A DNA stretch of 9,067 nt from a virus (lineage: Monodnaviria; Loebvirae; Hofneiviricota; Faserviricetes; Tubulavirales): IMG/VR virus record IMGVR_UViG_2660238346_000022; one strand, 5' to 3'. Under the pieces are notes generated by a model that saw only the letters and a list, made by a program, of their open reading frames with translations, was not told where the DNA came from and searched no databases. How positions within the stretch are numbered: position 1 is the first letter of the stretch; each line of letters opens with the position of its first letter. A program made the translations under genes and the position numbers. Shown here piece after piece: positions 2,725-9,067 of the stretch.

Positions 2725-3150
2725 TCAGCCTTTTTCTTTACCTGCGGGCAGTGCACCCAGCGGCTGACCGTCAAAACGTTTCATGGAGCCGGAAATAAAA
2801 CGATACCAGACACCATGACGTTCTGAGCCTGTCGACCATGAGTTAACATCCACCGTGAGATAAACAGATTTGCCCTGCAAATCAGGACATGAATTAAAAA
2901 ATTTAAAATCCTCCTCAGTACAGGAAAAGCGCTCATGCTCCTCACGGCGGACTTTTAATTTTCGGTCCTCATACGGATAGGCAATAACAATGGCATATTT
3001 GGGTTTGGCCTCAGGGTTATAATGAGAACCCGTGGGTTTTAACTCCTCATCATTTATGACAGTGGCGTGAATAAAATATCCCGCCATTGTCATACCTGCG
3101 GTAAAACCCTCAGGGGAAGGAAACGGAAAACTGTCGTAAATTTGATTCAT
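2725..3150 (-). CDS. Hypothetical 141-aa protein, putative ssDNA-binding protein by position (gene V slot)
   Basis: ATG at 3150 preceded by GAGGAG; sits immediately downstream of Rep as gene V does in Ff. No motif recognised, so the function is positional inference only. Confidence 0.4.
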   Translation of the reverse strand: MNQIYDSFPFPSPEGFTAGMTMAGYFIHATVINDEELKPTGSHYNPEAKPKYAIVIAYPYEDRKLKVRREEHERFSCTEEDFKFFNSCPDLQGKSVYLTVDVNSWSTGSERHGVWYRFISGSMKRFDGQPLGALPAGKEKG

Positions 3151-3180: not shown

Positions 3181-5422
<2,242 letters not shown>

Positions 5423-5555: not shown

Positions 5556-5756
5556 ATGGCTGAAAAAAGAAAGAGTTATAACGTGCCAAACGAGAAGTAT
5601 CTAAAGCTAGAAAGATTAGCTATTGATGCAAGTCAAAAGATAGGAAGGAGCATAAAATGGACCGAAGTACTGTCTTACATGATAGATCACTACGCAAAAG
5701 ACGCAGCAATAGATATGGTAAGTCAGGAAGAACTTAAGAAAAAAAAGGCAATGTGA
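5556..5756 (+). CDS. Ribbon-helix-helix (CopG/Arc-like) DNA-binding protein, putative phage repressor/regulator (66 aa)
   Basis: Strong RBS AAGGGGG 8 nt before the ATG. Sequence fits the RHH pattern: beta-strand KSYNV, helix A EKYLKLERLAIDA, turn with G-x-S (GRS), helix B IKWTEVLSYMIDHY. Transcribed divergently from Rep, as rstR is in CTXphi. Confidence 0.6.
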   Translation: MAEKRKSYNVPNEKYLKLERLAIDASQKIGRSIKWTEVLSYMIDHYAKDAAIDMVSQEELKKKKAM

Positions 5757-5819
5757 TCCCTTTCCCAACGTCAAACAAACAGGCCAGGAAAGATCAAAGG
5801 AAAAGTTAAACAAGGAAAT

Positions 5820-5975
5820 ATGCAGATAACCAGTGACTTAATCCTTGACCTGCTGATAAAGCATTTCGTTGTTGGCAGCATCACAGGCATGACAATATTC
5901 AGCCTGATAACGCTTGTCCCACCGTTGGTGATGACCATACACAAAAAACTAAGTAAGGACACTGAAATCCTTTAA
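5820..5975 (+). CDS. Small hydrophobic protein (51 aa) downstream of the RHH gene; not in the supplied ORF track
   Basis: ATG at 5820 preceded by AAGGAA; MQITSDLILDLLIKHFVVGSITGMTIFSLITLVPPLVMTIHKKLSKDTEIL; TAA at 5973-5975. Hydrophobic residues 7-40, charged tail. Followed directly by the 6010-6040 hairpin. Confidence 0.4.
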   Translation: MQITSDLILDLLIKHFVVGSITGMTIFSLITLVPPLVMTIHKKLSKDTEIL

Positions 5976-5980
5976 GGTTC

Positions 5981-6074
5981 AGTGCGCACAATGACGTTAT
6001 GTATAAAAAGGCCGCTGCGGTGGAGAGTATCGCAGCGGCCTTTTCAACATAACGCGTGTCACATTATGCGCACT
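5981..6074. other. Candidate XerCD-dependent attachment region: imperfect palindrome with dif-like arms flanking a hairpin
   Basis: 5981-5991 aGTGCGCAcAA (9/11 to the E. coli dif XerC arm GGTGCGCATAA); 5997-6007 TTATGTataAA (8/11 to the XerD arm). Inverted partner: 6042-6052 tTTcAACATAA and 6064-6074 TTATGCGCACt (10/11 to the XerC arm complement). Confidence 0.5.
6003..6044. terminator. Bidirectional rho-independent terminator-like hairpin
   Basis: Perfect 10-bp stem ggccgctgcg (6010-6019) / cgcagcggcc (6031-6040), 11-nt loop, flanked by ataaaaa upstream and tttt downstream, so each strand reads as stem plus T-run. Confidence 0.6.
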
Positions 6075-6127: not shown

Positions 6128-6850
<723 letters not shown>

Positions 6851-6903
6851 AATCAATCTCATCATGTTATACCGTTAAGTGCTGTTTTTCAGTCATGAAG
6901 ATA

Positions 6904-7005
<102 letters not shown>

Positions 7006-7078
7006 ATCAGACCTGCCAGTCCGGCAGGCAGGTGCAGTCCATGAAAACAAAGCGCGGATTAAGCTGCGGTGCACACTA

Positions 7079-7156
<78 letters not shown>

Positions 7157-7187
7157 GTAAGCTGGTTGACCATGTCAGCAAAGAGCA

Positions 7188-7272
<85 letters not shown>

Positions 7273-7306
7273 TGCCATCACAAGCGCAACTGAAGCATTC
7301 TGCCTC

Positions 7307-7341
<35 letters not shown>

Positions 7342-7390
7342 AGGTGCAGTCCATGGAAACAAAGCACGGATTAAGCTGCGGTGCACACTA

Positions 7391-7434
<44 letters not shown>

Positions 7435-7481
7435 CCATCGCCTGTACGCGTCGTGTTCTGCACAGCCAGTAAGCTGGTTGA

Positions 7482-7611
<130 letters not shown>

Positions 7612-7624
7612 AGTGTCCTCTGTC

Positions 7625-8830
<1,206 letters not shown>

Positions 8831-8843
8831 TTACCCCGCAAAA

Positions 8844-9067
8844 TTACTTGCCAACATTAAGCCCATTTGATTTAAATAAATCATAAACCAATCGATACAC
8901 TCTATCCTTATAAAGATATATGTATGAAATAAATTGAACATGGAGGATGATATTAAAGCAGTACTGAATATTTAAAGGCAGGTAACTGAATGCAACTACA
9001 ATAACATCGAGTTTATTAACATCGGAGATTTGACGAATAATAAAATTGACGGCAGATACAAGAGCAT
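8844..9067 (-). CDS. pVI-like protein, second copy, C-terminal part only (start lies beyond window end)
   Basis: Same sequence as 375-599 of the first copy, offset by 8469 bp after the 1-bp indel. Confidence 0.6.
   Translation of the reverse strand, partial: ALVSAVNFIIRQISDVNKLDVIVVAFSYLPLNIQYCFNIILHVQFISYIYLYKDRVYRLVYDLFKSNGLNVGK

Follow-up and report, generated by a model that had tools for sequence, protein, structure and literature searches.

The window, as we call the whole 9,067-nucleotide stretch of DNA analyzed, is a tandem filamentous (inovirus) prophage of E. coli with all major ORFs on the minus strand. The replication initiator is a 700-aa protein of the P2 GPA/RstA type (3181..5283, minus strand; Phage_GPA, E = 2.7e-48) with ~30% identity to the RstA of CTXphi, and a 141-aa protein of PHROG 30648 is encoded just downstream (2725-3150). 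Further genes on the same strand encode a small coat-like protein (2150-2410), a Gly/Ser-rich pIII with a Coat_A domain (734-2098), pVI (375-734), Zot/pI (7625-8827) and a remnant of the pIV secretin (6128..6865), which carries an internal deletion and a fourfold 145-bp tandem repeat. Followed along the coding strand, the pIV remnant is the last gene before a 94-nt hairpin-forming palindrome at 5981-6074, which is succeeded by two small genes on the opposite, plus strand (5556..5975, comprising 5556-5756, 66 aa, and 5820-5975, 51 aa) and then by the RstA-like replication gene. All family-matched ORFs are concerned with replication or with the virion and its assembly (Phage_GPA, Coat_A pIII, Zot/pI and the pIV remnant), and a scan of ten ORFs revealed no integrase domain. 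In filamentous phages the coding strand is the packaged (+) strand. Since the replication gene and the other genes lie on the minus strand, the packaged strand would be the minus strand of the window, as judged from gene orientation only.

The two ends of the window are repeats of one another (1-598 and 8469-9067, 99.5% identical, with 3 differences in 599 bases), so the window extends slightly beyond one 8468-bp unit of a tandem prophage. The three differences fit two adjacent, slightly diverged prophage copies, not a circular wrap-around. A megablast search with the complete window in 50,697 phage records returned no match, and the closest phage records, found by protein comparison, were only ~30% identical (fs2, VFJ and CTXphi RstA). 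Rfam gave no match in the window, and our literature search for a GPA-type E. coli inovirus found no description. The UPphi phages (PMC7307601), which are IKe/I2-2-like and whose paper makes no mention of hairpins or attP, were considered as the identity of the prophage and rejected.

Several further repeats mark this genome. The 145-bp unit, present four times at 99% identity (6264-6850), lies over pIV at its 5' end. Compared with the related prophage in E. coli TD225-C4, whose 407-aa secretin is intact, pIV lacks ~920 bp, and the copy in the window is therefore probably unable to make its own secretin. The IMG/VR contig L138 stops exactly at position 6263, suggesting that the repeat junction is genuine and that assemblies from short reads break at the repeat. 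Within the pIII gene, 39/78-bp tandem repeats (1230-1481) encode the Gly/Ser linker, and both the linker repeats and the N-terminal part of pIII vary strongly among relatives that are otherwise 95-99% identical. The stretch between the Zot and pIV genes contains a twice-repeated 312-bp unit (6904-7611) with three copies of a ~57-nt motif, TTCCGCTTCCTCG...GCGGCGAGCGG (6905-6960, 7217-7272 and 7556-7611). More than 5000 plasmids, for the most part small, mobilizable and ColE1-like, match the motif, which presumably resembles the pBR322 sequence near ori in which a PriA primosome assembly site is located; on this likeness, the region would be a candidate minus-strand origin. Some chromosomes contain up to 30 copies of the remainder of the 312-bp unit, and the same 736 bp adjoin a zot gene in Citrobacter youngae (OV141394.1).

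The palindrome at 5981-6074 reads AGTGCGCACAATG ACG TTATGTATAAAAA GGCCGCTGCG gtggagagtat CGCAGCGGCC TTTTCAACATAA CGCGTGTCA CATTATGCGCACT. A repeat finder run on the window resolved three nested inverted repeats in it: an outer one of 15 nt at 93% identity (5979-5993/6062-6076), an inner one of 14 nt at 86% (5995-6008/6041-6054) and one at the tip of 14 nt at 100% (6006-6019/6031-6044). The original prediction, made from the sequence of the window, had paired the outer arms 5981-5993 and 6062-6074 at 12 of 13 positions, as direct reading confirmed, and the inner arms at 10 of 12, a fair description of what the repeat finder aligned over 14 nt. At the tip, the predicted perfect hairpin (6010..6040) was recovered with a 10-bp stem, GGCCGCTGCG/CGCAGCGGCC, and an 11-nt loop (6020-6030). 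Its G+C stem (6010-6019/6031-6040) extends to 14 bp when the adjoining A/T run is counted.

Arms were matched against E. coli dif, GGTGCGCATAA-TGTATA-TTATGTTAAAT, and the likeness to its XerC and XerD halves that had been proposed for them was borne out. The palindrome contains two close-set dif-like XerC/XerD sites that are mutually inverted on the phage genome. Site 1 (5981-6007, plus strand) reads AGTGCGCACAA-TGACG-TTATGTATAAA. Its XerC-like arm AGTGCGCACAA (5981..5991) matches the dif arm GGTGCGCATAA at 9/11 positions and its XerD-like arm TTATGTATAAA (5997..6007) matches TTATGTTAAAT at 8/11, on either side of a 5-nt spacer (5992..5996) that reads CGTCA on the packaged strand. Site 2 (6074-6042, minus strand) reads AGTGCGCATAA-TGTGACACGCG-TTATGTTGAAA, with a XerC-like arm AGTGCGCATAA (6064..6074) matching dif at 10/11 positions, an 11-nt spacer TGTGACACGCG (6053..6063) and a XerD-like arm TTATGTTGAAA (6042..6052) matching at 9/11. 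The first three bases of the long spacer, TGT, are those that begin the dif centre TGTATA; the next 5-7 nt form a bulge and have no dif likeness, so that homology to the dif centre is confined to the TGT beside the XerC arm, with none on the XerD side. XerC is predicted to cleave and exchange the minus strand between 6064 and 6063. A dif-site pattern, GTGCGCAYAA-N(4-12)-TTATGT, matched the window twice against 0.00 matches expected from 200 shuffles, and the two matches are exactly sites 1 and 2. Spacers of 5 and 11 nt, the non-canonical spacing claimed at the outset, were read directly in the two sites, and as duplex DNA neither would be usable by XerCD in E. coli.

Folding of the element as single-stranded DNA gave -40.2 kcal/mol for the minus strand (z = -10.3) and -36.8 kcal/mol for the plus strand (z = -7.9), with 0/200 shuffles as good in either case. 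In silico, the fold of the packaged strand pairs sites 1 and 2 into one XerC-centre-XerD duplex. The XerC-like arm of site 1 pairs with 6064-6074, and its minus-strand complement thus becomes, in the modelled fold, the bottom strand of the XerC arm. The 5-nt spacer is wholly paired, with TG/CA beside the XerC arm and GCG/CGT beside the XerD arm, and the long spacer is left as a one-sided 6-nt bulge (TGACAC), in place of the asymmetric internal loop of 3 versus 9 nt that had been anticipated. Pairing in the stem is imperfect: the XerC arm contains a T-G wobble, and the XerD arm has two mismatches or a bulge. The original prediction also called the hairpin forked, a term that is not literally correct, since the tip forms only one hairpin: the 94-nt structure is unbranched, whereas the CTXphi site folded with the same tool has a truly forked tip.

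Scans of viral and genome collections yielded 37 distinct variants of the hairpin, and independent genomes and viral contigs contain the same 94 nt. Matches of a 17-base pattern in genome contigs were mostly noise from unrelated phyla, and those in Enterobacterales and Pseudomonas were used. The variants sit on at least four inovirus backbones: the window type, the CUS-1/Ypf type, others, and Pseudomonas elements with unrelated tips. The window-type backbone is that of L001, L002, L138, L140, L146, L159, L161 and L167. One of these, the IMG/VR contig L159, was considered as a relative lacking pIV and dropped, its left end probably being a mere prediction boundary.

An alignment was made of 30 distinct, mutually related variants. 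Standard pairs occupied 95.3% of pair cells, compared with 27-55% when the partners were slid, and four pairs had changes on both sides; the interrelatedness of the 30 variants means that shuffle statistics overstate their independence. Covariation within the Xer arms was modest because the top-strand arms are nearly invariant and are partly fixed by the search pattern. This pattern fixed 10/11 bases of the site 2 XerC arm and 7/11 of the XerD arm, and conservation at those bases is therefore not evidence. The TGT following the XerC arm was invariant in 30/30 variants, though it was not fixed by the pattern. Beyond it the spacer of site 2 is hypervariable, with 17 distinct spacers in the 30 variants. 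The short spacer CGTCA was identical in 26/30, a conservation not accounted for by a model in which the substrate is double-stranded site 2 alone. The tip stem is nearly invariant across the family and the loop variable. The fold was better on the coding strand in 29/30 variants, by a mean of 2.3 kcal/mol, because many of the pairs are G-T wobbles on that strand only.

Outside the enterobacterial family, four elements (L062, L130 (Pseudomonas-type), L142 and L143) have the same architecture with unrelated and longer tips. In each of them the dif-like sites form an inverted pair, one spacer is long and the other short, and TG follows the XerC arm, which suggests that the inverted two-site design is widespread or has arisen repeatedly. 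A truncated hairpin of the CUS-1 type, consisting of site 1, the tip and half of the site 2 XerD arm, was also observed on many large E. coli plasmids, at NZ_CP126927.1 (L005, 4000-4069) and ~480 other plasmid places. Its neighbours are a gene of the STM4504 family on one side and an IS200C fragment on the other, and it resembles a remnant captured from a dif-integrating element.

The original prediction had proposed the palindrome as a candidate attP, to be checked at the junctions of the prophage with the chromosome. E. coli TD225-C4 carries a tandem array of at least three copies of a prophage 95-98% identical to the window, and 97.7% identical across the hairpin region. The array lies beside hipA/hipB, between hipA and the rest of the dif locus. 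Where one phage copy abuts the next, the sequence agrees with that of the window, ...TTATGCGCAC-TGACGTTGTGG. In the far junction, ...CCACAACGTC-AGTGCGCATAA-TGTATA-TTATGTTAAAT, the XerC arm is that of the phage, recognizable by its diagnostic first A, and the centre and XerD arm are those of dif, from which it follows that a working dif is regenerated on that side. The hipA end reads TTTTCAACATAA-CGCGTGTCACA-TTATGCGCACC-AGTATAAACC; on its other strand it consists of the dif XerC arm GGTGCGCATAA, the 11-nt phage spacer TGTGACACGCG and the XerD arm of phage site 2, retained as TTATGTTGAAAA. The two junctions are reciprocal dif hybrids, which places the crossover inside their common block GTGCGCATAATGT; this block includes the XerC cleavage position, and in window coordinates the crossover lies within 6073-6061.

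The empty site was rebuilt by joining the left chromosomal flank, dif and the right flank into a composite query. It was found uninterrupted at 100% identity in three other E. coli genomes and at 80% coverage or more in 106 genomes, and 5229/5426 genomes matched at least part of the query. The attachment-site claim thus passed the junction test: integration had occurred exactly in dif next to hipA, leaving hybrid junctions, and the empty site is intact elsewhere. Functional dif is regenerated at one junction only. The top strand cleaved by XerC could come either from site 1, on the plus strand of the window, or from site 2, on its minus strand. Integration has split site 2, the site with its top strand on the minus (coding) strand, and CUS-1 in strain UTI89 shows the same polarity between split site and coding strand. 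By analogy with CTXphi, a split of site 2 is the outcome that XerC-only integration of a folded single strand would predict. Up to 10-16 matching places were found per genome, as tandem arrays would give. A comparison of hipA-side junctions (L002, 6255-6275, with L001, 20695-20715) showed that the outermost base of the chromosomal XerC arm is T in strain 600029 and C in TD225-C4 and UTI89, and that the next flank bases also vary between strains; the difference may be a natural polymorphism of the dif flank or the footprint of earlier phage integrations.

Taken as a whole, we consider it highly probable that 5981-6074 is a CTX-type attachment site, whose folded single strand is recombined with dif by an exchange catalyzed by XerC only and fixed by replication. 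[quoted passage not shown] We infer dependence on the Xer recombinases, a single-stranded substrate, catalysis by XerC only and irreversibility. In the proposed pathway, the inverted dif-like sites of the packaged (+) strand, the minus strand of the window, would pair to form the 94-nt hairpin, whose stem would mimic a single dif with a XerC arm, a centre of 5 nt opposite 11 nt (with the 6-nt bulge) and a XerD arm. Host XerC and XerD would bind this stem, and XerC would cut the top strand after AGTGCGCATAA and exchange it with the top strand of chromosomal dif, the common TGT stabilizing the strand exchange. The lack of homology on the XerD side would preclude a second exchange, and replication would turn the exchange intermediate, a pseudo-Holliday junction, into the prophage. 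Regeneration of a working dif on one side would permit further integrations, hence the tandem arrays, while the hybrid side, with its 11-bp spacer, would be dead as a duplex and integration effectively irreversible.

Identical junction sequences would arise if the substrate were double-stranded site 2, and the observed junctions are equally expected if the replicative form recombined by a VGJphi-type route through site 2 alone, with site 1 and the hairpin irrelevant. Of the two sites, it is indeed site 2 whose arms match dif better (10/11 and 9/11) and which shares the TGT. We nevertheless regard such a duplex route as unlikely. Its spacer is 11 bp, and attP1, its 12-bp equivalent in CTXphi, is reported to be no substrate suited to Xer recombination when double-stranded (PMC4246890); VGJ-type sites are single dif-like sites of 29 bp. 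An inverted site 1 with its 5-nt spacer has been kept on at least four backbones, complementary to site 2 and with some compensatory changes, and folding is systematically better on the coding strand.

Hairpins downstream of gene IV serve as packaging signal and minus-strand origin in the Ff phages. The palindrome here lies directly downstream of pIV on the packaged strand and between convergent ORFs, and its G+C tip stem is strongly conserved and flanked by A and T runs; it might therefore be mainly a terminator, packaging signal or minus-strand origin, its dif likeness being secondary. This is improbable, given that recombination with dif occurred within the element, at the border between XerC arm and spacer. 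A scan for consensus terminators made no call at the tip hairpin, which it missed because the 11-nt loop exceeds 8 nt, and the 6904-7611 region offers a separate strand-initiation candidate, as a lead only. Such roles may coexist with attachment; they cannot replace it, because recombination demonstrably happened at the palindrome. On the minus strand the tip hairpin is followed by TTTTTAT, and by this sequence feature it may double as a candidate terminator after the last late gene. A chance palindrome, or a chromosomal dif duplicated by assembly, has next to no probability: beyond the general frequency of short inverted repeats nothing favours chance, the dif-site pattern was expected 0.00 times and the fold has a z of -10.3, neither site equals dif, the spacers being 5 and 11 nt, and the 94 nt recur in independent genomes and viral contigs.

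More speculatively, the 94-nt hairpin could be a self-contained, horizontally exchanged cassette with several jobs, combining a single-strand attachment site with a terminator and/or packaging signal. Such a cassette would have been swapped among unrelated enterobacterial inovirus backbones and captured as truncated copies on hundreds of E. coli plasmids, its bulge perhaps being under diversifying selection. We regard this as a possible but doubtful extension of the attachment-site reading. Diversification of the 5-7-nt bulge may, for example, block exchange on the XerD side or recombination between co-resident phages.

The identification as attP is supported, but this kind of site has already been described for related enterobacterial phages; both it and the hairpin family are in the literature, and no new question is opened here. 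What is new is the presence of a CUS-1/Ypf-family hairpin on a phage backbone (P2 GPA/RstA-like) for which no description was found in the literature. Prophages of the window type come mostly from human diarrhoeal isolates. The sequence hallmarks expected of the entry route of the cholera phage, in which a folded strand impersonates dif, are thus present in E. coli, and the hybrid junctions and strand polarity lend it in-silico support, where CUS-1 and YpfPhi had sequence analogy only in the literature searched. The junction rules allow precise calling of prophage boundaries at dif, and the family alignment provides a compact 94-nt substrate for work on E. coli XerCD and a folded site.

The nearest known relatives of the hairpin are those of CUS-1phi, from E. 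coli O18:K1:H7, and YpfPhi. The window hairpin is 84.2% identical to that of CUS-1 in UTI89 over 92 nt, and the YpfPhi hairpin (Y. pestis, L044) is identical to that of CUS-1. Length, tip stem, 5- and 11-nt spacers and TGT are the same in CUS-1phi and the window, and the insertion point beside hipA and the types of junction are common to CUS-1phi, YpfPhi and the window prophage. Bulge and loop sequences differ, and the CUS-1phi stem scores -27.5 kcal/mol compared with -36.9 kcal/mol for the window type, which lacks the G/A mismatch in the XerC arm. The backbones are distinct: CUS-1phi and YpfPhi have a replication protein of the II/X family, whereas that of the window is Phage_GPA/RstA-like (700 aa), and their pIII, pVI and Zot are unrelated or distant to those of the window. 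The CUS-1 replication, pIII, Zot and pIV proteins gave no tblastn match in the window; with the intact pIV that the window-type prophage carries in TD225-C4, CUS-1 pIV shares 42% identity. Both phages have been tabulated as CTX-type members (PMC4246890), with attP features for direct single-strand integration (PMC3089051). For YpfPhi, an inverted pair of XerC/XerD sites and regeneration of dif at one end have been described (PMC4266046), and E. coli Endo III has been proposed as a co-factor for CUS-1phi and YpfPhi (PMC3442271).

The VGJphi- and TLCphi-type IMEX resemble the window phage in hijacking host XerCD for integration at dif without an integrase of their own. VGJ-type elements use a single duplex dif-like site of 29 bp and integrate reversibly, whereas the window has an inverted pair of sites, spaced by 5 and 11 nt, instead of one site with a usable spacer. 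TLC-type elements have a degenerate XerD arm, make the XerD exchange first and need an activation factor; both sites of the window have good XerD arms and non-canonical spacers. Integron attC sites likewise act only as folded single strands, undergo one strand exchange and are resolved by replication (PMC3089051), but depend on a dedicated integrase, IntI, and on recognition of extrahelical bases, and have no sequence relationship to the window hairpin.

The closest mechanistic model is attP(+) of CTXphi of Vibrio cholerae, in which attP1 and attP2 form the folded site (Val et al. 2005, in the summaries that cite it, PMC3089051 and PMC4246890), with spacers of 12 and 5-7 (PMC4246890). Folded with the same tool, the CTXphi site consists of AGTGCGTATTA-TGTGGCGCGGCA-TTATGTTGAGG, then 87 nt, then an inverted attP2 with a 7-nt spacer, and gave -45.1 kcal/mol (z = -7.1), a 5-nt top-strand bulge and a branched tip. 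In each system the dif-like sites are inverted on the coding strand. The one with the long spacer (12 nt in CTXphi, 11 nt in the window) comes 5' and the one with the short spacer (7 and 5 nt) comes 3'; the attP2 arm is the counterpart of the XerC-like arm of site 1. In both, a TGT by the XerC arm matches the centre of host dif and the XerD side has no homology, and the predicted bulge is one-sided and on the top strand (5 nt there, 6 nt in the window). The gene neighbourhood also agrees. In CTXphi, the site is flanked by ctxB and by rstR, which has the opposite orientation, and is upstream of rstA; the site thus follows the last late gene and precedes an opposite small gene and an RstA/GPA-type replication gene, rstR occupying the position of the two small opposite-strand genes of the window. 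Integration in dif, regeneration of dif on one side and tandem arrays are likewise shared. The differences are in host dif (GCGTATTA in Vibrio, GCGCATAA here, with arms that differ too), in size and shape (~150-160 nt with a forked tip in CTXphi, compared with an unbranched 94 nt) and in cargo, as CTXphi carries toxin genes and the window phage does not. The proteins are distant, the replication protein being ~30% identical, and the window element is known from sequence alone. Tip branching excepted, the CTXphi attP(+) architecture that had been proposed for 5981-6074 is thus matched feature by feature.
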